Positions 2,973 through 46,878 of a stretch of 64,000 nt of DNA are shown one piece after another. The stretch is from Prevotellaceae bacterium UBA4301 (GTDB lineage: Bacteria > Bacteroidota > Bacteroidia > Bacteroidales > Bacteroidaceae). Both the position numbers and the translations under genes were made by a program. Each line of letters opens with the position of its first letter. Within the stretch, counting starts at the first letter, position 1. Location of the stretch: contig DGUV01000075.1 of NCBI GenBank assembly GCA_002395775.1, forward strand, positions 30,677 to 94,676. Direction: 5' to 3'. The notes under the pieces are model-generated. The model was not told the origin of the DNA. It ran no database searches and saw only the letters and a program-made list of their open reading frames with translations.

Positions 2973-4409
2973 ATGGCTAAGGACAAAGTGATGTACGTCT
3001 GCTCGGAATGTGGACAGGAAGCAACGAAGTGGGTGGGCAAGTGCCCGGCCTGCGGACAGTGGAACACCATGAAGGAATTCAAAGTCGGTCCCTCTCCCCG
3101 CTCCTCTCGCGGGGGAGAGAGCCTCGCCCTACACTTGCAGGGCAGGGAGCGTCCACAGTTGTTACAGGACATTCGGGCCGACCAGGAAGTGCGCATCGAC
3201 ATGGGCGACCAAGAGCTCAACCGTGTCCTGGGCGGTGGACTGGTGCAGGGCAGCCTCGTCCTGCTTGGCGGCGAACCGGGCATCGGCAAGAGCACACTCA
3301 TCCTGCAAACCGTCCTCCGCCTTCGTGGCAAGAAGGTGCTCTACATCAGCGGGGAAGAAAGCGCCCGCCAAATCAAACTTCGCGCCGACCGTCTCTCTCC
3401 CTCACGGGGGGAGCAGGGAGAGGGGCTTCTCATCCTATGCGAAACCTCTCTCGAGGCCATCTACGAACACATCCAGGAGGAACAGCCCGACCTGGTGGTC
3501 ATCGACTCCATTCAGACCATCTCCACCGATTCCGTAGAATCCTCCCCGGGTAGCCTCAGCCAAATACGCGAATGCGCCGCCTCCTTGTTGAAGTTTGTCA
3601 AATCGTCAGGACAAGCCCTCCCCCCCACGGGCGAAGCGGGAAGAGGGACCGGACCAAGCTGTTCCATCATCCTCATCGGCCACATCACCAAGGAGGGCAC
3701 GCTGGCCGGGCCCAAGGTGCTGGAGCACATCGTCGATTGCGTCCTCCAGTTCGAGGGCGACCAGCACTACATGTACCGCATCCTGCGCAGTCAGAAGAAC
3801 CGCTTCGGCAGCACCTCCGAACTGGGCATCTATGAAATGTTGCAAGGCGGCCTGCGCCAAGTTTCCAACCCCAGCGAGCTCCTTCTCACCGAAGGCCGGG
3901 AGGGACTGAGCGGCATCGCCATCTGTTCGGCCATCGAGGGCGTGCGTCCGCTCCTCATCGAGACTCAGGCGCTGGTCTCCACCGCAGCCTACGGCACTCC
4001 GCAGCGCTCCGCCACGGGTTTCGACACGCGTCGCTTGGCCATGCTTCTGGCCGTACTGGAGAAGCGCGTGGGCTTCAAACTGGCGCAGAAGGATGTCTTC
4101 CTCAACATCGCCGGCGGACTGCGCGTCACCGACCCTGCCATGGACCTCAGCGTCATCGCGGCCGTCCTTTCCAGCAATGTGGACGCGGCCATCGAAGCCG
4201 ACACCTGCATGTGTGGCGAAGTGGGTCTCTCGGGTGAGATTCGTCCCGTGGCCCGCCTCGAACAGCGCATTGCCGAAGCCGAGAAACTGGGCTTCCGCCG
4301 CATGCTCGTCCCGGCACAAAGCTTCAAGGGCATCAATCAGGACCGACTCAACATAGAGATTGTTCCCGTCCGCCGCGTCGCCGAGGCCGTAAGGGCACTC
4401 TTCGGATAA
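2973..4409 (+). CDS. radA: DNA repair protein RadA
   Basis: It has an N-terminal zinc ribbon (CSECGQEATKWVGKCPACGQWNT), a Walker A motif (GGEPGIGKST), the KNRFG motif, and a Lon-like C-terminal domain. Confidence 0.95.
   Translation: MAKDKVMYVCSECGQEATKWVGKCPACGQWNTMKEFKVGPSPRSSRGGESLALHLQGRERPQLLQDIRADQEVRIDMGDQELNRVLGGGLVQGSLVLLGGEPGIGKSTLILQTVLRLRGKKVLYISGEESARQIKLRADRLSPSRGEQGEGLLILCETSLEAIYEHIQEEQPDLVVIDSIQTISTDSVESSPGSLSQIRECAASLLKFVKSSGQALPPTGEAGRGTGPSCSIILIGHITKEGTLAGPKVLEHIVDCVLQFEGDQHYMYRILRSQKNRFGSTSELGIYEMLQGGLRQVSNPSELLLTEGREGLSGIAICSAIEGVRPLLIETQALVSTAAYGTPQRSATGFDTRRLAMLLAVLEKRVGFKLAQKDVFLNIAGGLRVTDPAMDLSVIAAVLSSNVDAAIEADTCMCGEVGLSGEIRPVARLEQRIAEAEKLGFRRMLVPAQSFKGINQDRLNIEIVPVRRVAEAVRALFG
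3088..3150. repeat. Family A GC-rich palindromic arm(s), in-frame in radA
   Basis: cctctccccgctcctctcgcgggggagagag plus gccctacacttgcagggc. Encodes GPSPRSSRGGESLALHLQGRE in the linker after the zinc finger. Confidence 0.7.
3393..3427. repeat. Family A arm, in-frame in radA
   Basis: ctctctccctcacggggggagcagggagaggggct. Its reverse complement nearly equals the mnmA left arm. Encodes SPSRGEQGEG. Confidence 0.75.
3614..3650. repeat. Family A arm, in-frame in the radA ATPase domain
   Basis: agccctcccccccacgggcgaagcgggaagagggacc encodes ALPPTGEAGRGTG. Compare the mnmA right arm, which encodes [11 protein letters not shown]. Confidence 0.8.
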
Positions 4410-4973: not shown

Positions 4974-6629
4974 ATGACACGAGACCTACAACTGCGCATC
5001 ACGCCACGCGATGCCTACAACGAACAATCCATACGCCGATATGTGGCACGCGAACAGGGATGGGACGAACGCACCATCACCTGCGTACGCACACTGCGCC
5101 GGAGCATCGATGCCCGTCAGCGCGACATCTATGTCAACCTCTCCGTGCGCGTCTTCATCAACGAACAACCGCCCCAGGACGAGTTCCAGCCCGTGGAATA
5201 CCACGACGTGAGCGACCGCCCGCAGGTCATCGTCGTCGGTGCCGGACCGGGGGGACTCTTTGCTGCCCTCCGGCTCATCGAACTGGGCCTGCGCCCCATC
5301 GTGGTGGAGCGTGGAAAGAACGTGCGCGACCGCAAGAAGGACCTGGCCCGCATCCGACCCGAACAGCGCATCGACCCCGAGAGCAACTACTCCTTTGGCG
5401 AGGGCGGCGCAGGCGCATACTCCGACGGCAAACTCTACACCCGCAGCAAGAAGCGCGGCAACGGAGAAAAGATTCTCCGCGTCTTCTGTCAGCATGGCGC
5501 CAGCCCCAGCATTCTCTCCGATGCCCATCCCCACATCGGTACAGATAAACTGCCCCGCGTCATCGAGAACATGCGCGAAACCATCCTCCGCCATGGTGGC
5601 GAGGTGCACTTCGAGACGCGCATGAGCGCGCTTCTAATTCAAAATTCAACGCTCGGCCCAAAGGGACGCTTGCAGAGCGAAGCGGGGCAAGAATTCAAAA
5701 TTCAGCATGGGTCTGCACCTTATGTCGAAGGCATTGCCTGTGCCGACGGACGGGAGTTCCATGGCCCAGTCATCCTGGCCACGGGCCATTCCGCCCGCGA
5801 TGTCTATCGGTGGCTCTACGACAATGGCATAGAACTCGAAGCCAAGGGCCTGGCCGTGGGCGTCCGCCTCGAACATCCTGCCGAACTCATCGACCAGATA
5901 CAATACCATAATAAGCACGGACGCGGCAACTACCTGCCCGCTGCCGAGTACAGCCTGGTGCAACAGGTGGACGGACGTGGGGTCTATAGCTTCTGCATGT
6001 GTCCGGGTGGTTTCGTGGTTCCTGCCGCCAGCGGCCCCGAACAGATTGTGGTCAACGGCATGAGCCCCTCCAACCGCAACGGCCGATGGAGCAACAGCGG
6101 CATGGTGGTGGAACTGCGCCCCGAGGACGTAAAACAAATTCAAGATGAGGGAGAAGGCGACGTCCTAAAGATGATGCATTATCAAGAGGAACTGGAGCGC
6201 ACATGTTGGCAGCAAGGCAACATGCGCCAGACGGCACCCGCCCAGCGCATGGCCGACTTCGTCAACAACCGCCTCAGCTACGACCTCCCCGCATCGTCCT
6301 ATGCCCCCGGCCTCATCAGCAGCCCCCTCCACTTCTGGATGCCCGAACCCATTCGCCATCGACTGCAGCAGGCCTTCCAGACGTGGGGCCGACAGAAGCA
6401 CGGTTTCCTCACCAACGAGGCCACCGTCATCGGCGTGGAGACGCGCACCAGCAGTCCCGTACGCATCGTGCGCAATCCCGACGACCTCCAGCACATCCGT
6501 CTCCGCGGCCTCTTCCCCTGTGGCGAAGGCGCCGGCTACGCAGGCGGCATCGTCAGTGCCGGCGTCGATGGTGAGCGCTGCGCCGAAGCGGCATTGCAGT
6601 ACTTGGAGGAGGTAAGAGGTAGGAGGTAG
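4974..6629 (+). CDS. FAD-dependent oxidoreductase (COG2509-like)
   Basis: 551 aa with the dinucleotide-binding motif VVGAGPGGLFAAL, ATGHSARD, and a C-terminal GEGAGYAGGI. Confidence 0.75.
   Translation: MTRDLQLRITPRDAYNEQSIRRYVAREQGWDERTITCVRTLRRSIDARQRDIYVNLSVRVFINEQPPQDEFQPVEYHDVSDRPQVIVVGAGPGGLFAALRLIELGLRPIVVERGKNVRDRKKDLARIRPEQRIDPESNYSFGEGGAGAYSDGKLYTRSKKRGNGEKILRVFCQHGASPSILSDAHPHIGTDKLPRVIENMRETILRHGGEVHFETRMSALLIQNSTLGPKGRLQSEAGQEFKIQHGSAPYVEGIACADGREFHGPVILATGHSARDVYRWLYDNGIELEAKGLAVGVRLEHPAELIDQIQYHNKHGRGNYLPAAEYSLVQQVDGRGVYSFCMCPGGFVVPAASGPEQIVVNGMSPSNRNGRWSNSGMVVELRPEDVKQIQDEGEGDVLKMMHYQEELERTCWQQGNMRQTAPAQRMADFVNNRLSYDLPASSYAPGLISSPLHFWMPEPIRHRLQQAFQTWGRQKHGFLTNEATVIGVETRTSSPVRIVRNPDDLQHIRLRGLFPCGEGAGYAGGIVSAGVDGERCAEAALQYLEEVRGRR
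5636..5704. repeat. Family C element, in-frame in the oxidoreductase gene
   Basis: acgctcggcccaaagggacgcttgcagagcgaagcgggg is bracketed by two copies of aattcaaaattca. It is homologous to the reverse complement of 46077..46120. Confidence 0.7.
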
Positions 6630-16179: not shown

Positions 16180-16233
16180 CTTTATATGTATTTAAGTTGT
16201 TAATTTAATTTCTTATAGGTTATGAGGGAGTTC

Positions 16234-16349
16234 TTGCTCCTCTTCGTTACACAAGCGTAGGCTTTGCCTCCGATTACTTGCTCCTCTTCGTTACGCAAGC
16301 GTCACTGCTTTGCAGATGCCGAGCGAAAGGGGAGTTAAAAGGGAGTTAG
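16234..16349. repeat. Upstream repeat cluster: direct repeat, diverged family C copy and family D boxes
   Basis: cttgctcctcttcgttacRcaagcgt occurs twice (16234 and 16277). It is followed by gcgtcactgctttgcagatgccgagcg, which resembles family C, and by ggagttaaaagggagtta, which is family D. Confidence 0.6.
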
Positions 16350-16374: not shown

Positions 16375-16650
16375 TTATTTGTCATCGTAGTGACCATAGG
16401 CCATGAGGACTAAGACTATTACTTCCGTATCCTTAATGCGGTAGACCAAACGATGTTTCTTCGTTATCTGACGGCTCCACCGACCTCCGGGTTCTCCCTT
16501 CAATGGTTCAGGGTGCCCTGTGCCAGTCTTGGGATGCATCTTCAGTTCTTCAATGAAACGAAGTGCCTTCTGAAACGCTTTAGGTTCGGACTTAGCCAAG
16601 CGAACGAGGTCTTCTTCAGCCTGCTCCGTAATCTCAATGCTATATATCAT
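16375..16650 (-). CDS. yoeB: Type II toxin, Txe/YoeB family
   Basis: MIYSIEITEQAEEDL...KHRLVYRI...VIVLVLMAYGHY matches the YoeB/Txe signature. The ATG at 16650 overlaps the upstream antitoxin ORF by 11 nt. Confidence 0.85.
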   Translation of the reverse strand: MIYSIEITEQAEEDLVRLAKSEPKAFQKALRFIEELKMHPKTGTGHPEPLKGEPGGRWSRQITKKHRLVYRIKDTEVIVLVLMAYGHYDDK

Positions 16651-16885
16651 AACCACGACGCTTCAAATAATCAGCCACATTCTCCTCGTGCAACATTGCA
16701 TGGGATTCCCCTTGCTCCGCCTCATCGAGACGGGCGAAATACTGGGCCTTTGTCATCAGGGTGGGGTCTGCCTCCTTCTCTTCCTCAAAAGAGACGAGCC
16801 GCTCTGCCAACCACTTGCGGTTACGACGCGAGAGGGATAGGCTCTTCAGGAACTCCCACAGATTGTTCATTGCTTTGGTTGTCAT
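16640..16885 (-). CDS. Putative cognate antitoxin
   Basis: 81 aa ORF (MTTKAMNNLWEFLKSL...) overlapping the toxin start. The first in-frame ATG was chosen as the start. The family is not recognised. Confidence 0.6.
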   Translation of the reverse strand: MTTKAMNNLWEFLKSLSLSRRNRKWLAERLVSFEEEKEADPTLMTKAQYFARLDEAEQGESHAMLHEENVADYLKRRGYDI

Positions 16886-16948
16886 GATATAGGTATTTTC
16901 GGTATTACACAACGCAGTTACGCGCGCACAATGTGCACGCATGGAAAG

Positions 16949-16956
16949 CAAAGGTA
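16949..16956 (-). promoter_or_regulatory. -7 promoter box TACCTTTG for the toxin-antitoxin (TA) operon
   Basis: The reverse complement of caaaggta matches TAnnTTTG. A palindrome, gcacattgtgc, lies between the box and the ATG and could be an operator. Confidence 0.45.
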
Positions 16957-19303: not shown

Positions 19304-19332
19304 GGAGTTAACGACCTGCGGTCGAGGAGTTA
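19304..19332. repeat. Family D module (GGAGTTAA-hairpin-GGAGTTA), inverted relative to 19835..19948
   Basis: ggagttaa cgacc tgc ggtcg a ggagtta. Confidence 0.8.
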
Positions 19333-19441
19333 TATTGGGAGTTATGTGGGGAGTTATATTGGGAGTTATATTGGGAGTTATGTGGGGAGTTATGTGGGGA
19401 GTTATGTGGGGAGTTATTGTTCACTGGAGTTATGTTGAGAC
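19326..19441. repeat. 12-bp tandem repeat (GGAGTTATRTKG), 7 units plus 2 degenerate units
   Basis: Units start at 19326, 338, 350, 362, 374, 386 and 398. Degenerate units start at 19410 and 19426. The array overlaps the last codons of the four-helix-bundle ORF. Confidence 0.9.
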
Positions 19442-19812: not shown

Positions 19813-19834
19813 GTATTCTTTTTTTATTACCTTT

Positions 19835-19948
19835 TAACTCCTCGACCAAAGGTCGTTAACTCCTTTTATTACCTTTTAACTCCTCAACTATGGTTGTTAA
19901 CTCCTTGCTCAAGGAGCATTAACTCCTCGACCAAAGGTCGTTAACTCC
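19835..19948. repeat. Four chained family D modules (TAACTCC-hairpin-TTAACTCC)
   Basis: Modules lie at 19835-63, 19877-904, 19898-926 and 19920-48. Their stems are cgacc/ggtcg, caac/gttg, tgctc/gagca and cgacc/ggtcg. Confidence 0.85.
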
Positions 19949-19953
19949 TTTTA

Positions 19954-20268
19954 TTACATCATCCCCAGTTCCAACTTCGCTTCTTCGGACATCATGTCCT
20001 TGTCCCACTCGGGTTCGAAGACCAGATTGACATCGACGTGGCGGAGGCCATCGATGGTCTCGAGCTTCTGGCGCACGTCCTCCATGATGAAGTCGGCGGC
20101 AGGGCAGTTGGGGGCGGTGAGCGTCATATCGACCTGAAGCTCGGTGGCATCGTCGGAGAGTTCGATGCGATAGATGAGTCCGAGGTCATAGATGTTGACG
20201 GGGATTTCGGGGTCATAGACGGTCTTGAGGAGGTCGATGACTTTTTCTTGTATCTCTATTTGGTCCAT
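19954..20268 (-). CDS. DUF59/MIP18-family Fe-S cluster assembly protein (SufT/PaaD-like)
   Basis: VYDPEIPVNIYDLGLIY...MTLTAPNCPAA. The start was set at the ATG at 20268 to avoid overlap with radC. Confidence 0.75.
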   Translation of the reverse strand: MDQIEIQEKVIDLLKTVYDPEIPVNIYDLGLIYRIELSDDATELQVDMTLTAPNCPAADFIMEDVRQKLETIDGLRHVDVNLVFEPEWDKDMMSEEAKLELGMM

Positions 20269-21082: not shown

Positions 21083-21122
21083 TAACTCCTGCGCCAAAGG
21101 CGCTTAACTCCCCTTTAACTCC
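21083..21122. repeat. Family D module plus an extra TAACTCC box
   Basis: taactcc tgcgcc aaa ggcgc ttaactcc cctt taactcc. The stem differs from other copies but stays complementary. Confidence 0.8.
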
Positions 21123-21128
21123 CCTTTT

Positions 21129-22246: not shown

Positions 22247-22295
22247 CAAAGGTACGAATAAGCCATCAAAATACCAAACATGTTTGGGCATTTTC
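22247..22295 (-). repeat. Family B promoter-like module, including -7 box TACCTTTG at 22247-22254
   Basis: caaaggtacgaataagccatcaaaataccaaacatgtttgggcatttt resembles the copies at 45876.. and 31040... Confidence 0.65.
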
Positions 22296-28266: not shown

Positions 28267-28404
28267 GCCCCTACCCCCAATCCCCTCCCGAGGGAGGGGC
28301 GTGAACACAGGCATAAAGATAAGTTACAATATATGAATATCGGGAAAAACATAATTAGCAATAATGCCCACTCCTCCCCCTCGGAGGAGGTCGGAAGAGG
28401 GGCC
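28266..28404. repeat. Family A inverted doublet (REPIN/MITE-like) spanning the ddl-acyltransferase junction
   Basis: Left arm: ggcccctacccccaatcccctcccgagggaggggcg. Right arm: gcccactcctccccctcggaggaggtcggaagaggggcc. The reverse complement of the right arm resembles the left arm. A 64-bp AT-rich core between them contains the ATG at 28333. Confidence 0.7.
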
Positions 28405-29589
28405 ATTGGGAGTTCGGAATTCGACCAAATCCGCCCTTACAACGATGACGAGGTGAAGGAGGCCATCGAGAGTTTGCTTCAGGACCGACAGTTTTCGCGC
28501 ATTCTCAAGCGAATCCTTCCTCTCTTGCCCTTGGGCATGAGTCGCGGCGTGCTGAAACTGGCCACGCTGGGCATACACTCGACGCTCGACTTCCAGCTGC
28601 GATTCATGAAGCCTGTGGTAAACTACATCCTGCGGAAGTGCTCGACGGGCCACACCTTCCGGCACGACGGCATTACGCCTGGTCCGGACCGCTACACCTT
28701 CATCAGCAACCATCGCGACATTGTGCTCGACAGTGCCATCCTGGACGTGATGCTCCACGATGCCAAGTTCCCAACCACCTGTGAGATAGCCATCGGCGAC
28801 AATCTCCTGATATATCCCTGGATTCGCACACTGGTGCGACTGAACAAGGCCTTCATCGTGCGGCGCAACATCTCGCGTCGCGAACTCTTCGAGAGCAGTC
28901 TGCTCATGAGCCGATACATGCACCATGTCATTCAGGAGAAGCGGGAGAACATCTGGATAGCCCAGCGCGAAGGCCGGGCCAAGGATTCGAGCGACCACAC
29001 ACAGGAGGCGCTGCTGAAGATGCTGACCCTCGCAGGCACAGAGGGCACAGAGAAGACCGAGGGCACGGAGTCTTTGCAGGAAAGCATCCGGCAGTTGAAC
29101 ATCGTTCCGCTATCGATAAGCTACGAATACGACCCTTGCGACTATCTGAAGGCTAAGGAGTTCCAGCAGAAGCGCGACGATGCCTCGTGGAAGAAATCGA
29201 AACAGGACGACCTCACGAACATGAAGACGGGCATCTTCGGAAAGAAAGGCCATGTGCACTACCAGACCGGGCGACCCGTGAACGAGTGGATAGACGAACT
29301 GAAGGACCTTGACAAGAGCGAGTTCTATGCCGAACTGGCCCGTCGCATCGACATTGAGATCTATCGCAACTACCGTCTGTTCCCAGGCAACTATGTGGCC
29401 GCCGACCTGCTTGCCAATCGACCCTCCCATGCCAGTCAGTACACCCACAAGGACAAGGTAACCTTTGAAAAATACATAAAGGAACGCATGGCCTTGGTGG
29501 ACTTGTCCAACCGAGACGAGGACTTCCTGCGCGAACGTCTGCTCACCATGTATGCCAATCCCGTACTGAACTATGAAAAGACGATATAA
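28333..29589 (+). CDS. Glycerol/lysophospholipid acyltransferase family protein
   Basis: 418 aa with the HX4D motif SNHRDIVLDSA. The first 24 or so codons lie inside the family A doublet. Confidence 0.7.
   Translation: MNIGKNIISNNAHSSPSEEVGRGAIGSSEFDQIRPYNDDEVKEAIESLLQDRQFSRILKRILPLLPLGMSRGVLKLATLGIHSTLDFQLRFMKPVVNYILRKCSTGHTFRHDGITPGPDRYTFISNHRDIVLDSAILDVMLHDAKFPTTCEIAIGDNLLIYPWIRTLVRLNKAFIVRRNISRRELFESSLLMSRYMHHVIQEKRENIWIAQREGRAKDSSDHTQEALLKMLTLAGTEGTEKTEGTESLQESIRQLNIVPLSISYEYDPCDYLKAKEFQQKRDDASWKKSKQDDLTNMKTGIFGKKGHVHYQTGRPVNEWIDELKDLDKSEFYAELARRIDIEIYRNYRLFPGNYVAADLLANRPSHASQYTHKDKVTFEKYIKERMALVDLSNRDEDFLRERLLTMYANPVLNYEKTI
29032..29070. repeat. GGCACAGAG (GTE) short tandem repeat, in-frame
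   Basis: gcaggcacagagggcacagagaagaccgagggcacggag encodes AGTEGTEKTEGTE. It shares a 17-nt identical core with the reverse complement of 294..326. Confidence 0.75.
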
Positions 29590-30289
29590 AGGAGTTAAAA
29601 GGGAGTTAAAGGGGAGTTATACTCGCTTTGCTCGTGGAGTTAAAGGGACAATTCGCCTACCAATCAAATACATTCGTCCCTTTACCTTCTTCTTAACGCC
29701 CCTTCTATTACTTTTAACTTTCTTTTCATTGTCGTCATGTCGTGACGACAATGATGATGCCCCCTACCCCAGCATCATCACCGAAATGGCCGACTGCCCC
29801 ACCAACAGCGACGGCACCATGGTGAAGATTGTGCTTGACGATGATACCGAACTGCCGCTCAGCAACCCACAAACGGGGTTGAAAGCCGATGTCATCTATC
29901 GCTGCCTGGCCGGCTACACCTTAGACAAAGGGCAAGCCACCCTCTATAGCCTGAAGTCTGCTGCCCTGCTGCGCGACTCCACGTCGGTGGCCCAGTGCGA
30001 CCCTGTGAATGTCGTAAGCCTGTGGCAGACACGCCGCTACATCAACCTCCATCTCATGCCCAAGACACAAGACCAAGGGACGCACTCGTGGGGATTCATC
30101 ACCGACAGCATCCGAGGCCGCCATGCCTACCTGCGGCTACACCACCGACAGGGCTCCGACCCAACGGCCTACAGCACCGACGTCTATGCCTCACTGCCCC
30201 TCCACCTCGTAGCGGCCGATACCATCACCCTGCGCATCCGCACCTTCTCTGGCACGAATGAGCAGACGTTTCCCTTAGAAAGCAAGTAA
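29573..30289 (+). CDS. Hypothetical lipoprotein, tentatively NigD-like
   Basis: It has the lipobox FFSLSSC. Its N-terminal 25 codons run through the family D GGAGTTA boxes. The family assignment is from memory only. Confidence 0.45.
   Translation: MKRRYKGVKRELKGSYTRFARGVKGTIRLPIKYIRPFTFFLTPLLLLLTFFSLSSCRDDNDDAPYPSIITEMADCPTNSDGTMVKIVLDDDTELPLSNPQTGLKADVIYRCLAGYTLDKGQATLYSLKSAALLRDSTSVAQCDPVNVVSLWQTRRYINLHLMPKTQDQGTHSWGFITDSIRGRHAYLRLHHRQGSDPTAYSTDVYASLPLHLVAADTITLRIRTFSGTNEQTFPLESK
29590..29641. repeat. Family D GGAGTTA boxes, 4 copies
   Basis: ggagtta occurs at 29590, 29601, 29612 and 29635. Confidence 0.75.
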
Positions 30290-30976: not shown

Positions 30977-31039
30977 ACAAAATAGTTTTAGTGTACGCAA
31001 AGATACGATTTTTTCCTGGCACGGCCGCATTTCAAAAGT

Positions 31040-31170
31040 CAGAAAACGGCAAAGTTCTTTGTTTTTTCGCTCGCTTAATCGTACCTTTAACCTGCGGTTT
31101 TAGGTACTACCGCTCGGAAAAAACAAAAGTTCTTTGTTTTTTCGCTCGCTTAATCGTACCTTTGTGCCCA
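31040..31170 (+). repeat. Family B: duplicated promoter-like module with a hairpin, upstream of mnmA
   Basis: agttctttgttttttcgctcgcttaatcgtaccttt occurs twice. The first copy runs into the palindrome gtacctttaacc tgc ggttttaggtac. The second copy ends in the -7 box TACCTTTG (31157-31164). Confidence 0.8.
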
Positions 31171-31182
31171 AATAGCAAGGGC

Positions 31183-32430
31183 ATGAAGAATATAGCTGTA
31201 CTGATATCGGGCGGCGTGGACAGCGCCGTAGTGGTTCACCAATTGTGTGAACACGGTTACAAACCCGACCTTCATTATATTAAGATAGGTATGGAAGGCG
31301 AGGACTCGTCTTGCTCGGCCGAGGAGGATATTGAACTCTCGCAGGCCACGGCAAGGAAGTATGGTCTGAAGCTGGAAGTCACCGACCTGCAGAAAGAATA
31401 CTGGGAAAAGGTGGTGGGCTATGCCATAGAGCGCGTGAAGGAAGGACTGACGCCGAACCCCGACGTAATGTGCAACCGACTCATCAAGTTCGGAGCCTTC
31501 GAGGAACGCATCGGCAAGGATTACGACCTCGTGGCAACGGGGCACTATGCAACACGCAAGGCCCCTCTCCCTGCTCCCCCCGTGGGGGGGAGAGTCTTGC
31601 CTTTCCTGTTGAATGATGTTGAACTAAAGACAGAAACGCTGGAGGACATTGCCCTCGAAGGAGAAGCCCTCCCCCCCACGGGGGGAGCGGGGAGAGGGGC
31701 CATTTTTCTGGGCACCGCCAAGGACCCCGTGAAGGACCAGACGGACTTCCTTGCCCAACTCACCTACGAACAACTCCAGCATACCATCTTCCCCATTGGT
31801 CACCTAATGAAGGAAGAGGTGCGGGACATTGCCATCCGGGCAGGATTGCCCAGTGCGCGCCGTAAGGACAGTCAGGGCATCTGCTTCCTGGGCAAGATAA
31901 ACTACAACGACTTCCTGCGCCGTTTTCTGGGCGAACAGGAAGGCCGCATCATCGACATTGAGACGGGTAAGGTGGTGGGTAGGCACCGGGGATTCTGGTT
32001 CCACACCATCGGGCAGCGCAAGGGATTGGGACTGAGCGGCGGCCCCTGGTTCGTGGTGAAGAAGAACGTCAAGAAGAACATTGTCTTCGTGGCCCGCGGC
32101 TGGGACACGCAGTTGCAGTATGGTCACGACTTCCGCCTGGCCGACATGCACTTCATCACAAGCAATCCTTGGGAAGAAGAGACGAATGAAGAGGGGAACG
32201 TGAAGCGCGGAGAATCAGAATTAATCAAGAAGGGCTTGCCCATTTCGTTCAAGATTCGGCACGTCGATCACTTCATGCCCGGCATCATCACACTGGACGA
32301 CGAAGGCTATCACATCCACTCCGACGAACCCATTCAGGGCATTGCCCCCGGCCAGTTCGGATGCATCTACGACGCCGAACACCGCATCTGCTACGGCAGT
32401 GGCGAGATAGCCATATACAAAGACCGATAA
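31183..32430 (+). CDS. mnmA: tRNA 2-thiouridine(34) synthase MnmA
   Basis: It has the PP-loop [29 protein letters not shown] and [10 protein letters not shown]. The start was set at the ATG at 31183. The upstream ORF extension is translated repeat sequence. Confidence 0.9.
31561..31700. repeat. Family A inverted doublet inserted in-frame in mnmA
   Basis: Left arm: gcccctctccctgctccccccgtgggggggagag. The reverse complement of the right arm is gcccctctccccgctccccccgtgggggggagggc. The core is about 70 bp. The region encodes [47 protein letters not shown]. Confidence 0.85.
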
Positions 32431-34848: not shown

Positions 34849-34973
34849 GGCCCCCTCCCCTTACCCTCCCCGAGGGGAGGGAGTTGATACTTACATATAG
34901 AATTATCTTCTGCCATATTTTCCTCTTATTTGTAACCACTCCCCTCCCCTCGGGAGGGGTAAGGGGGTGGGGC
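34849..34973. repeat. Family A inverted doublet, between the TonB receptor and PnuC-family cistrons
   Basis: Left arm: ggccccctccccttaccctccccgaggggagggag. The reverse complement of the right arm is gccccacccccttacccctcccgaggggaggggagtgg. The AT-rich core is 52 bp. Confidence 0.85.
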
Positions 34974-43797: not shown

Positions 43798-43927
43798 GAC
43801 CCCCTCCCCGCTCCCCCTTGTTGGGGGAGAGTAGAATGATTTGTGGGAGGGTATTCTACTTCAAAAATATAATAATAATGAAATGTAACCGCTCCCCGCC
43901 CTACAAGGGAGGGGCCGGGGGCGGGTC
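43798..43927. repeat. Family A inverted doublet between etfA and the acyl-CoA dehydrogenase gene
   Basis: Left arm: gaccccctccccgctcccccttgttgggggagag. The reverse complement of the right arm is gacccgcccccggcccctcccttgtagggcggggagcgg. The core is AT-rich. Confidence 0.8.
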
Positions 43928-44951: not shown

Positions 44952-45838
44952 TATCCTATCGTATGACTTGCCAATAACTCCTTGACCAGTCCGTTGATGT
45001 CCTCGTCGGAACCAGTCAGTTGCTTACTCTCTTTGGCCTTGAAGACGATGTTCTCCACAGCCTTCACCTTCGTGGGCGAACCGGCCAGCCCGCACTGCTG
45101 CAGGTCGGCATTCACGTCGGCCGTAGTCAGTTGCTGAATACGCAGGTATTGCTTCTTGCCATACTGGTCGGCATAGGGCATATCCTCATAGGTCTGTCCC
45201 TGCGGCAACTCCAGGGGAGCCAGCGCACGCTTGAACTTCATCACACGCTTCACGTTGCGAGGGCGACAGGGAGCAGCCGATCCGTTCACAGTCAGCACGC
45301 AGGGCAGTGGGCTCTCCACCGTTTCCACGCCGCCGTCGATGTGGCGGGTTACAGTTATTTTACCATCTTTCAAGGAAAGGATTTCCTCCGTGTAAGTAAT
45401 CTGGTTCAGTCCCAACTTCTCAGCCACCTGAGGCCCCACCTGGGCGGTATCGCCGTCGATGGCCTGACGACCACCTATGATGAGGTCCACATTGGGGCAA
45501 ACATGCTTGATGGCTGTAGCCAGAGCATAACTGGTGGCCAGCGTGTCGGCGCCGGCAAATGCACGGTCGGTGAGCAGATAGCCGCCATCGGCCCCACGAT
45601 ACATAGCCTCACGAATAACTTCAGCGGCACGTCCGGGGCCCATAGTCAGAATCTGAACTGTGGTGCCAGGAAATTGATCTTTCAGTCTGAGAGCCTGCTC
45701 CAAGGCATTCAAATCCTCCGGATTGAAAATAGCAGGCAGTGCGCTGCGGTTCACTGTGCCTTCGGGTGTCATGGCATCGGGACCCACATTGCGCGTGTCA
45801 GGCACTTGCTTAGCAAGTACTACAATCTTTAAACTCAT
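44951..45838 (-). CDS. etfB: Electron transfer flavoprotein subunit beta
   Basis: 295 aa with MSLKIVVLAKQVPDT...NP.D..ALE.AL...GRQAIDGDT.QVGP. Confidence 0.9.
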   Translation of the reverse strand: MSLKIVVLAKQVPDTRNVGPDAMTPEGTVNRSALPAIFNPEDLNALEQALRLKDQFPGTTVQILTMGPGRAAEVIREAMYRGADGGYLLTDRAFAGADTLATSYALATAIKHVCPNVDLIIGGRQAIDGDTAQVGPQVAEKLGLNQITYTEEILSLKDGKITVTRHIDGGVETVESPLPCVLTVNGSAAPCRPRNVKRVMKFKRALAPLELPQGQTYEDMPYADQYGKKQYLRIQQLTTADVNADLQQCGLAGSPTKVKAVENIVFKAKESKQLTGSDEDINGLVKELLASHTIG

Positions 45839-45872
45839 ACGCTATTATATTAATATATAATGTATAAAATCG

Positions 45873-46183
45873 GCACAAAGGTACGAATAAGTGAGTAAAA
45901 TGCCAAACTTGTTTGAGCATTTTCGAACGGAAGTACCTAAAACCACAGGTTAGAGGTACGAATAAGTGAGTAAAATGCCAAATTTTGGAGCAACGAATGC
46001 AAAGATTTGCTTGCATAGTCTTTGCTGAGTCGCGACAAAATAAGGCCAAAGGCCAAACTTGTTTGAGCATTTCTTTCCCCGCTTCGCTCTGAAAGCGTCA
46101 CCCTTCGGGATGCCGAGCGTCGAACGGAAGTACCTAAAACCGCAAGTTAAAGGCACGAATAAGTGAGTAAAATGCCATGTTTC
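45873..46183. repeat. Family B: three promoter-like modules with hairpins in the etfB / lipoprotein divergent region
   Basis: aggtacgaataagtgagtaaaatgcca occurs at about 45879 and 45954, and as aggcacgaataagtgagtaaaatgcca at about 46151. Hairpins are gtacctaaaacc aca ggttagaggtac (45932-58) and its relative at about 46130. The real -7 box for etfB lies at 45876-45883. Confidence 0.8.
46077..46120. repeat. Family C element nested in a family B copy (filled site)
   Basis: ccccgcttcgctctgaaagcgtcacccttcgggatgccgagcgt interrupts gagcattt..cgaacggaagtacc. That flanking sequence is uninterrupted at 45914-45937, which is the empty site. Confidence 0.8.
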
Positions 46184-46262
46184 AAGGAGAATCCCGACAA
46201 TGTATAGGAAAATTCCCAAACAAGAATAGGGGAACACCCTTGCACAGTCGAGAATAATGCCT

Positions 46263-46270
46263 TATCTTTG
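46263..46270 (+). promoter_or_regulatory. -7 promoter box TATCTTTG
   Basis: TAnnTTTG match 30 nt upstream of the ATG at 46300. Confidence 0.5.
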
Positions 46271-46299
46271 CACTATCAAACCTTATAACAGACACAATT

Positions 46300-46878
46300 A
46301 TGAAAAAGATGAACAAGTACTTCTGGATGCTGATAGCCCTGATGGGACTGTCACTGACCCTGACCAGCTGCTACGACGAGGACGATAATATTGGCAGCTA
46401 TGTCAGCGGGCACTGGTTCGGCGACATGGATATGTGGATTGACGGTGAAAAGGCACGCGGCTCGGAAATCGAGTTCACGCCCACCGGCTGGGGCTACACC
46501 TCAGGCTATGGCTACGAAATCGACTACTACCGCTTTGGAAGTATGACTCACCGTTTCAACTGGCAAGTGCGCAACGAGGTCATCTACCTGACATTTGACG
46601 ACCCCGCCCTCGACTGCGCCATCGTGGACTATCGCCTGAGTTACTACAAATTCACGGGTTACATTGCCGACTATTACACGCTGGAGAACCTTACCTACTT
46701 CTCGCTACGCAACTATGACCGCGAATGGGACACCTACGGCTATGGCGGCTACTACTACGACCCCTACTATGTAAAGGGTAAGAAGGAGGCAACTAACGAC
46801 TCCATCATCACCGAGACAACGGAGAGAAGCGAACCCAAGTGCGTGCGCGGTGTGAACAGACGAAAAGCAACGAACTGA
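46300..46878 (+). CDS. Hypothetical Tyr-rich lipoprotein
   Basis: It has a signal peptide and lipobox (LSLTLTSC). The family is not recognised. Confidence 0.55.
   Translation: MKKMNKYFWMLIALMGLSLTLTSCYDEDDNIGSYVSGHWFGDMDMWIDGEKARGSEIEFTPTGWGYTSGYGYEIDYYRFGSMTHRFNWQVRNEVIYLTFDDPALDCAIVDYRLSYYKFTGYIADYYTLENLTYFSLRNYDREWDTYGYGGYYYDPYYVKGKKEATNDSIITETTERSEPKCVRGVNRRKATN

Follow-up and report, generated by a model that had tools for sequence, protein, structure and literature searches.

A 42- to 49-nt two-hairpin repeat of rumen Prevotellaceae that enters DNA as an exact unit 3' of TT

The window analysed here, 64,000 nt of DNA from Prevotellaceae bacterium UBA4301, holds two copies of a repeat, family B, with common flanks in the spacer between etfB and a lipoprotein-like gene (Table 1). 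In one copy the flanks are contiguous; in the other they are separated by a short sequence, family C. The initial annotation took the two for an empty and a filled target site lying side by side, and as direct evidence that C inserts as a discrete unit. The locus raises the question whether C is a mobile unit with a history of its own, or a former part of B which was lost from one of the copies.

Two B copies in the spacer upstream of etfB

Read directly from the sequence, the flanks of B copy 1 meet as ...AAATGCCAAACTTGTTTGAGCATTT^TCGAACGGAAGTACCTAAAACC..., and in B copy 2 ...AAAGGCCAAACTTGTTTGAGCATTT is separated from TCGAACGGAAGTACCTAAAACC... by the insert CTTTCCCCGCTTCGCTCTGAAAGCGTCACCCTTCGGGATGCCGAGCG. 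This 47-nt insert cannot be shifted by 1 base, carries no direct repeat at its ends and, on comparison of the two copies, is not accompanied by a target duplication. The 44-mer proposed initially (46077-46120, plus about 3 extra bases) had the right total length, but its ends were offset: the first CTTT was missing on the left, and one T of the flank was included on the right. Flank and element recur in the window far above expectation, which excludes chance. The 21-nt right flank has two exact occurrences and a third with 2 mismatches at 31096-31116 (0.00 expected), 13-nt CCCCGCTTCGCTC, the start of the 44-mer, is found at 46077 and at 5675-5687 (0.06 expected), and blastn aligned 46071-46099 with 5665-5693 over 29 nt (93% identity, E = 9e-7). 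C1 matches the cores in L075 and L081, which belong to another species, at 100% identity. Together with C2, C3 and a partial tandem copy at 16233-16258, it makes up the family C complement of the window.

Table 1. Positions of repeats, genes and other features in the window
Feature	Position	Strand	Remarks
Gene for FAD-dependent protein (PF21688, PF00890), 551 aa	4974-6629	+	host gene of C2
Heptamer array (ATTCAAA)n	5637-5705	+	split by C2; left part 5637-5649, right part 5692-5705
C2, family C copy, 42 nt	5650-5691	-	in frame, 14 codons LGPKGRLQSEAGQE; indel versus empty allele 5651-5692
C3, family C copy, 49 nt	16277-16325	+	second hairpin CTGC-TTT-GCAG; partial tandem copy 16233-16258 before, AAAGGGGAGTTAAAAGGGAGTTA repeat after
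Single B X promoter module plus palindrome	22247-22295	+	without linker, without C
Family B locus X - linker - X	31039-31168	-	75-nt period, without C; upstream of plus-strand gene
TPP riboswitch, RF00059	37421-37520	-	61.9 bits; only Rfam family in the window
etfB, electron transfer flavoprotein beta subunit, PF01012	44951-45838	-	gene served by promoter repeat
etfB promoter, Bacteroidota-type TTTG-N20-TAccTTTG	45876-45907	-	first X module of family B
B copy 1 linker	45898-45944	+	imperfect palindrome AAATGCCAAAC-TT-GTTTGAGCATTT (45898-45922), then TCGAACGGAAGTACCTAAAACC
'Empty' equivalent in B copy 1, GAGCATTT^TCGAACGG	45915-45930	+	junction 45922^45923
Block missing from short alleles (L003, L006, L007), 197 bp	45949-46145		second X module, unique middle part, truncated B copy 2, C1
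B copy 2, 5'-truncated	46048-46141	+	left flank 46048-46072, C1, right flank 46120-46141
C1, family C copy, 47 nt, B-associated subtype	46073-46119	+	second hairpin A-CCC-TTC-GGG-ATG; separates flanks of B copy 2
Lipoprotein-like gene	46300-46878	+	other border of etfB intergenic region

Family B had been described as a repeat family. Its units are indeed repeated, but they are not free-standing elements: B combines the adjacent gene's promoter, of the Bacteroidota -33/-7 type, with a local duplication of 75 nt. Its gene-proximal part (CAAAGGTACGAATAAGTGAG...TGCCAAA, on the other strand) is the canonical Bacteroidota promoter TTTG-N18-22-TAnnTTTG, a consensus with 12 matches in the window (0.47 expected). 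Three of these are B modules (22247-22278, minus strand; 31133-31164, plus strand; 45876-45907, minus strand), each correctly positioned before the start of a gene. On its upstream side the promoter adjoins a linker, (T)YCGAGCGG-NAGTACCTAAAACC-loop, which forms an inverted repeat with the region of the -7 box; beyond it follows a second, locus-specific copy of the promoter module, with a period of 75 nt both at etfB and at 31 kb. At etfB, X modules (ACGAATAAGTGAGTAAAATGCC) are repeated at 45883-45904, 45958-45979 and 46155-46176, and in the linker of copy 1 GTACCTAAAACC is paired with GGTTAGAGGTAC (hairpin 45933-45959). The same architecture was found in other MAGs, with compensatory changes such as GTATCT...AGATAC in L062, and in rumen metagenomes the conserved part of B had a read depth of ~160x that of single-copy flanks. 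C1 lies where C recurs in promoter-repeat units, at the 3' foot of their palindrome, ~170 nt upstream of the etfB core promoter, where it is probably neutral.

The duplicated X part is locus-specific and 29-64 nt long (45876-45985 and 31039-31168 in the window, L085:241-500, L075), and the start of the B linker, YCGAGCG, is the same as the right end of C.

Among contigs encoding an identical EtfB, the spacer measures 461, 475 or 264 nt. The short alleles lack a 197-bp block, whose placement is ambiguous within flanking direct repeats; their junction is a copy 1/copy 2 recombinant. When reads and contigs of 8 rumen runs were placed on 45600-46500, further alleles were recovered, one without 75 nt (45879-45953) and one without 129 nt (46051-46179), besides a B-C junction belonging to another locus; the spacer exists in at least five recombinant structural alleles. 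An assembly or chimera artefact of the metagenome contig might be suspected in such a repeat-rich spacer, as short-read contigs break at repeated modules. It is, however, scarcely credible here, because the long allele has the identical arrangement in independent assemblies of different samples (L001, L004), L002 contains the same C-filled second copy inside the 475-nt spacer variant, and Logan contigs, which also show the long arrangement, bridge 45956-46097 and 46094-46500.

Comparison of strains for insertion polymorphism, as the initial annotation had proposed, revealed only the 197-bp, 75-nt and 129-nt block differences at this locus, and an allele differing by C alone was not found among the related contigs and the 8 rumen runs. 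Two scans with 0 matches were uninformative, namely an exact-match scan for a hypothetical copy 2 without C (one collection, JGI metagenomes) and a degenerate scan for the B-C junction (one collection, exact matching needed). Since the alleles found differ by blocks, none by C alone, the pair compares paralogues in a recombination-prone spacer: the shared flanks and the exact insert stand, but the two sites are not the filled and empty states of one target. In other genomes, B units next to unrelated genes contain this subtype of C at the equivalent junction, and copy 2 may therefore have arrived already filled with C. The pair is a correct and useful clue, and the decisive evidence lies at the gene copy C2 and in related genomes.

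Other repeats of the window comprise a G/C-rich palindrome family (GGCCCCTCTCCCCGCTCCCCCCGTGGGGGGGAGAG-like), often in inverted pairs (3087-3128, 3385-3427, 3608-3650, 28269-28299, 31560-31701, 34850-34973 and 43800-43829). Arrays and dispersed copies of GGAGTTA or TTAACTCC type are located at 19326-19417, 19822-19957, 21104-21127, 16326-16348 and 29587-29619; these units have periods of 11, 12, 22 and 42, and one directly abuts C3. Tandem repeats account for 42 TRF rows in the window, many with a period of 7-12. A small overlapping gene pair on the minus strand (16375-16656 and 16640-16951) lies beside the C3 repeat cluster; judged by eye from the translations, its downstream ORF is YoeB/Txe-type toxin-like and its upstream ORF antitoxin-like.

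Filled and empty alleles of a gene for a FAD-dependent protein

That C is tolerated in frame within a gene, as had been noted initially, was borne out by C2, which lies within the ORF of a FAD-dependent protein. Among 120 close homologues, the peptide LGPKGRLQSEAGQE is limited to the immediate relatives of the window protein, and more than 100 lack the insert. The protein P0004 (537 aa), which is 99.1% identical to that of the window, lacks exactly these 14 residues. Its empty-site DNA, CTAATTCAAAATTCAAC^ATTCAAAATTCAG, was found in three independent contigs and defines an unambiguous 42-nt indel with no duplication. The window allele corresponds to (ATTCAAA)4 plus a canonical 42-nt core at ATTCAA^A (GAATT^TTGAAT in the orientation of C), and the outgroup allele L129 (87% identical) has an uninterrupted (ATTCAAA)4. 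The intact outgroup array and the more than 100 homologues without the 14 residues identify the insertion of C2 as the derived state. With 42 nt being 6 x 7 as well as 14 x 3, both the heptamer phase and the reading frame are kept. The exact 42-nt difference between 99%-identical gene alleles and the exact 47-nt difference between the B copies confirm the initial view of C as a discrete unit. A 13-nt target duplication around C2 (AATTCAAAATTCA) was considered and rejected, as the heptamer array existed before the insertion.

Four runs placed on the C2 gene copy all contained the filled allele. The empty P0004 is nested among filled alleles, and its junction, ATTCAAC^ATTCAAA, has a C where the outgroups have an A; this C is the same as the first base of the element. 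It could be the footprint of a loss offset by one base, it could mean that this allele is truly ancestral to the insertion, the terminal G of C then counting as homology, or it could be a coincidental SNP. Precise loss of the C core probably occurs. The documented junctions differ by 1 nt (CTT...GAGCG vs TCTT...GAGC).

The loop encoded by 5630-5710 is hypervariable across species (protein lengths of 515-594 aa, P0001-P0120) and often contains translated heptamer repeats, for example IQNSKFKIQN, which corresponds to (ATTCAAA)n, IHNSQFTIHN or LNSQLST; P0001 and P0005-P0007, with 711-835 aa, contain large internal duplications. In another species, the loop of P0012 (L130:201-1847) contains a degenerate C-like segment, TTCTGCCCTAACGAGCGAAGCGCCGCAAGCGTCGAGCG, in sense orientation, opposite to that of C2, which suggests an independent hit of the same array.

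Family C in related genomes

Further copies were collected by one degenerate 21-mer scan of species-representative genomes, which returned at least 114 loci; among the matches listed, ~95 loci lie in ~30 MAGs of rumen Prevotellaceae or 'Bacteroidaceae', in which the copies of C number at least ~96. The consensus is TT^CTTKCYCCKCTTCGCTMYRMAAGCGTC-(short GC hairpin)-CCGAGCG, and the copies listed measure 42-49 nt, mostly 42, the others 44, 45, 47 or 49. Hairpin 1, CTTKC-N13-GMAAG, is followed by a GC stem of 3-4 bp and then by CCGAGCG. The read depth of the core was ~10-700x that of single-copy flanks. Six loci (L037, L043, L050, L052, L106 and L117, Acidaminococcus) harbour an unrelated multi-copy repeat (…CATGTTTCTCGGACTTCCGCTTCGCTCCAAAAGCGTCCTTCGAAACTCCGGGCG…) which matches the degenerate 21-mer. 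L111:4252-4450 contains at least 3 head-to-tail repeats, with a period of 66 nt, of a unit made up of the C core and a 22-nt spacer; this tandem composite has a superficial likeness to a repeat-spacer array.

Both hairpins are supported by covariation, as indicated by an excess of pairing and by two-sided changes. In 26 distinct 42-mers, 96.6% of the cells of the two hairpins were paired, compared to 88% in shuffles (0/500); four pairs had changes on both sides, and slid controls reached at most 56%. The K:M pair is T:A in 62 copies, G:C in 36 and of any other kind in 0. The stability of the hairpins is not unusual (z about 0), a search of 45800-46320 against Rfam 15 gave no match at E <= 1, and no intrinsic terminator or terminator-like tail was found at C.

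Long ORFs are the site of 24 of the 98 copies, 13 of them in sense and 11 in antisense orientation; the length of C is a multiple of 3 in 20 of these 24 copies and in 38 of the 74 outside ORFs. Copies verified in genes include, besides C2, one in a CTP synthase, where the insert splits the Pfam match to the N-terminal domain, and one in a GH88/DUF4861 protein (L062), with a net gain of 14 aa versus all homologues. As a second filled/empty DNA pair, L062 is limited by the closest empty homologue, which at 82% identity leaves the DNA junction not resolvable. Relative to host genes, C occurs in either orientation. The retention of both hairpins, the conservation of the sequence across species and the association with promoter-repeat units are also in keeping with a selected cis-acting site (a protein-binding site, or an RNA hairpin serving REP-like mRNA stability, termination or nucleoid organisation), the distribution of which would reflect function, not mobility. 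We consider this improbable: besides the missing terminator-like tail and Rfam match, a quarter of the copies lie in ORFs, and their occurrence in both orientations under a multiple-of-3 constraint makes them translated passengers; moreover, presence of C differs between near-identical alleles of a housekeeping-type gene.

The dinucleotide TT directly precedes the core in 95-96 of the 96 copies listed and pre-existed in both empty sites; C enters DNA as an exact unit 3' of TT, without target duplication. In 40 of 96 copies (4.3 expected), three or more 6-mers are common to both flanks. Copies lie within short tandem arrays (TTGAGAA, GTTGAGC, GACAAGTT, CAAGGAGTT), the phase of which runs on across the core (TT^GAGAA); for this reason, 7-nt flanking repeats such as GAGAGTT and GAGAATT were rejected as target duplications. 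Other copies are found in loops between flanking inverted repeats or in the middle of larger composites, of which AAACCCTGCATT-C-ATAGCCGCCCCTTATCAAGGGGCTCTAAAT occurs about 10 times in RUG178. Copies in L029, L083 and L107 lie in unique coding sequence without arrays.

Copies with identical cores within a genome share on average 9.6 flank 6-mers, versus 2.3 for copies with different cores. The core variant is thus tied to the type of flank, indicating that most copies spread with their flanks or by homology. Nevertheless, in 7 of 59 within-genome pairs identical cores lie in unrelated flanks which have nothing but TT in common.

A subtype of C with the second hairpin A-CCC(C)-loop-GGG(G)-ATG is associated with B and occupies two fixed positions of B-like units. 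The first, that of the window, recurs in L075 and L081, and L028 has the same junction with a different core variant; the second was found at five loci of ruminal_MAG_90. All these copies adjoin unrelated genes. Between loci and species, the B-associated cores are 98-100% identical, whereas the 20-nt B flanks are only 25-90% identical, which argues for a separate history of C, under its own constraint, and upholds the initial statement that it is nested inside another repeat. The initial annotation had itself raised the alternative that the segment is ancestral to B and was deleted at 45924 (here the junction 45922^45923), so that its discreteness would reflect precise loss. The empty P0004 allele and its junction base suggest that near-precise loss is possible, and the identity of the linker start of B with the right end of C fits such an origin. 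The data are nonetheless strongly against it, and we regard it as very unlikely. Most B copies were seen without C (the 31-kb locus, copy 1, L062, L085) and ~90 copies of C lie in non-B contexts, from which it follows that C is not ancestral to B; in addition, C occupies two different positions of B-like units, and its cores are far more conserved than the B flanks.

Origin of the copies and comparison with known small repeats

Family C is a small non-autonomous bacterial repeat, many copies of which multiply with their surroundings or through homology. As to its origin, we favour dedicated insertion in trans followed by passive multiplication of the copies with their flanks, to which we assign a probability of about 0.5. 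An enzyme acting in trans would recognise the hairpins of C on single-stranded DNA in the style of HUH/Y1 transposases (IS200/IS605 or RAYT), and would insert C immediately 3' of TT without target duplication. Once inserted, copies would multiply passively along with their flanks as repeats recombine, arrays expand and segments are duplicated locally. The trans-acting activity on single-stranded hairpin DNA is one that we infer by analogy with these enzymes.

In ~900 kb of C-bearing loci, neither a C-specific mobilising enzyme nor a longer parent element or insertion sequence with C-like ends was found. The sole Y1 transposase gene in these loci (L044, PF01797, E = 1.5e-11), detected by tblastn with sequences of IS200 TnpA and E. 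coli RAYT as queries, lies 1.2 kb from a C copy. It has a flanking palindromic repeat of its own which differs from C. This gene (L044:2356-3564, minus strand) is RAYT-like with a C-terminal HTH; the repeat, AAAAGTGTGGAGAAACTTCAAATTC-N-GAATTTGAAAAAGTGTGGAGAAAA, is located at 3640-3705, 2295-2355 and, internally, 2605-2665, and gene and palindrome likely constitute a REP/RAYT pair unrelated to C. Hairpin 1 of C begins directly at the left junction, where a guide segment of the kind published for IS608 would have no room, and the small size of C does not suit ends of the IS608 type. The linkage of core variants to flank type, the 1-nt difference between the documented junctions, the ordinary stability of the hairpins and the lack of a C-only polymorphism among the alleles found at the 46-kb locus also count against dedicated insertion.

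Alternatively, there may be no dedicated transposition at all, and C may have been copied by homology or microhomology between similar heptamer arrays, B units and composite repeats, for instance through short-patch gene conversion or template switching during replication, with the hairpins promoting fork stalling and the switch of template. This is a serious possibility, although we would not bet on it. The tight linkage of core variant and flank type within genomes, the short repeat units common to both flanks in 40 of 96 copies with their phase preserved, the recurrence of the B-specific subtype at the same B position, the missing target duplication and the five or more recombinant alleles of the etfB spacer all accord with such copying; likewise, the 1-nt difference between the documented junctions vanishes if the terminal G of C provides homology with GTTGAAT. 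On the other hand, gene conversion would be expected to have evened out the flanks as well, and the B flanks are far more divergent than the cores; the seven pairs of identical cores with only TT in common and the insertions in unique, array-free coding sequence also oppose it.

Taking dedicated insertion further, C might tentatively be viewed as a class of ultra-small mobile DNA not described so far, a Bacteroidota unit of 42 nt which a putative host- or element-encoded enzyme inserts at TT and also excises. Its TT targets would lie in heptamer arrays and hairpin loops, again with no target duplication, and C would remodel surface loops of proteins, essential ones included, as well as regions upstream of promoters; we hold this picture as a whole to be possible but doubtful. 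If it is true that C is mobile as a 42-nt unit, it would rank with the smallest mobile DNAs known, and no family of this sort would have been described before in Bacteroidota; a description of such elements in Prevotella or Bacteroidota was not found in the literature searched. With its abundant copies, cultivable relatives and natural filled and empty alleles, C offers a tractable case for the movement of DNA without coding capacity, inverted ends or target duplication. Together, C and the heptamer arrays generate rapid in-frame length variation in protein loops (the FAD-dependent protein, CTP synthase, GH88) and structural variation upstream of promoters. In rumen Prevotellaceae, short-read assemblies are broken at these modules, which also make strains look more different than they are.

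Like IS200/IS605 elements and PATEs, C is inserted 3' of a short specific target without duplication; in both, subterminal hairpins take the place of terminal inverted repeats, and excision may be precise. A cognate Y1 transposase and a strand bias towards the lagging-strand template are further marks of IS200/IS605-derived elements. Known IS200/IS605 ends, however, comprise ~40-60 nt each, with guide segments between cleavage site and hairpin, whereas C comprises 42 nt in all, has hairpin 1 at the junction and is without a cognate tnpA in the sampled loci. In MITEs, which usually exceed 100 bp, the termini are inverted repeats and the target site is duplicated; none of this applies to C. Its termini, CTTKCY... 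and ...CCGAGCG, do not form reverse complements, such inverted repeats as it has belong to the internal hairpins, and a target-site duplication is absent from both filled/empty pairs. Resemblance to MITEs such as Correia, ERIC, RUP and the BrickBuilt elements of P. gingivalis (PMC4596501) is limited to being non-autonomous, multi-copy and sometimes intragenic, some MITEs also having internal tandem repeats.

With the REP/BIME sequences, which are associated with RAYT (Y1/HUH) transposases (PMC2817692), C has in common short GC-rich hairpins, a high copy number, the occurrence as modules of mosaic composites and the lack of target duplication. REPs are extragenic, have a conserved 5' tetranucleotide beside one palindrome and are clustered around a RAYT gene; C, by contrast, has two hairpins and is often intragenic, with about a quarter of its copies in long ORFs, and no linkage to a RAYT gene was seen in the ~900 kb of C-bearing loci. 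C thus lacks the terminal inverted repeats and target duplication that define MITEs and, with its intragenic copies, departs from REPs.

Elhai et al. reportedly described the small dispersed repeats SDR1-8 of Nostocaceae cyanobacteria in 2008 in Genome Res 18:1484. C resembles SDRs in behaviour only: both are very small, non-coding and devoid of a transposase, both occur nested within other repeats and tandem heptamer arrays, and the mobility of SDRs was reportedly likewise deduced from comparison of orthologous sites. SDRs have no sequence similarity to C, measure 21-27 nt and are confined to Nostocaceae, whereas C measures 42-49 nt, has two hairpins and belongs to Bacteroidota; to our knowledge, SDRs are not noted for lying frequently in frame within ORFs. 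A secondary description of SDRs is given in PMC5861425.

In-frame residence in protein-coding genes, with a reading frame open through the element, is a trait that C shares with the Rickettsia palindromic elements (RPEs). These are said to have been described by Ogata et al. in 2000; they measure ~100-150 bp and belong to Alphaproteobacteria, whereas C, from Prevotellaceae, is three times smaller and is tied to heptamer arrays and promoter repeats. RPEs are selfish palindromic repeats which lie in frame in unrelated, even essential, protein-coding genes and add a segment of peptide to the products (PMC10969869). In concept, C is closest to the SDRs of cyanobacteria and the RPEs of Rickettsia.
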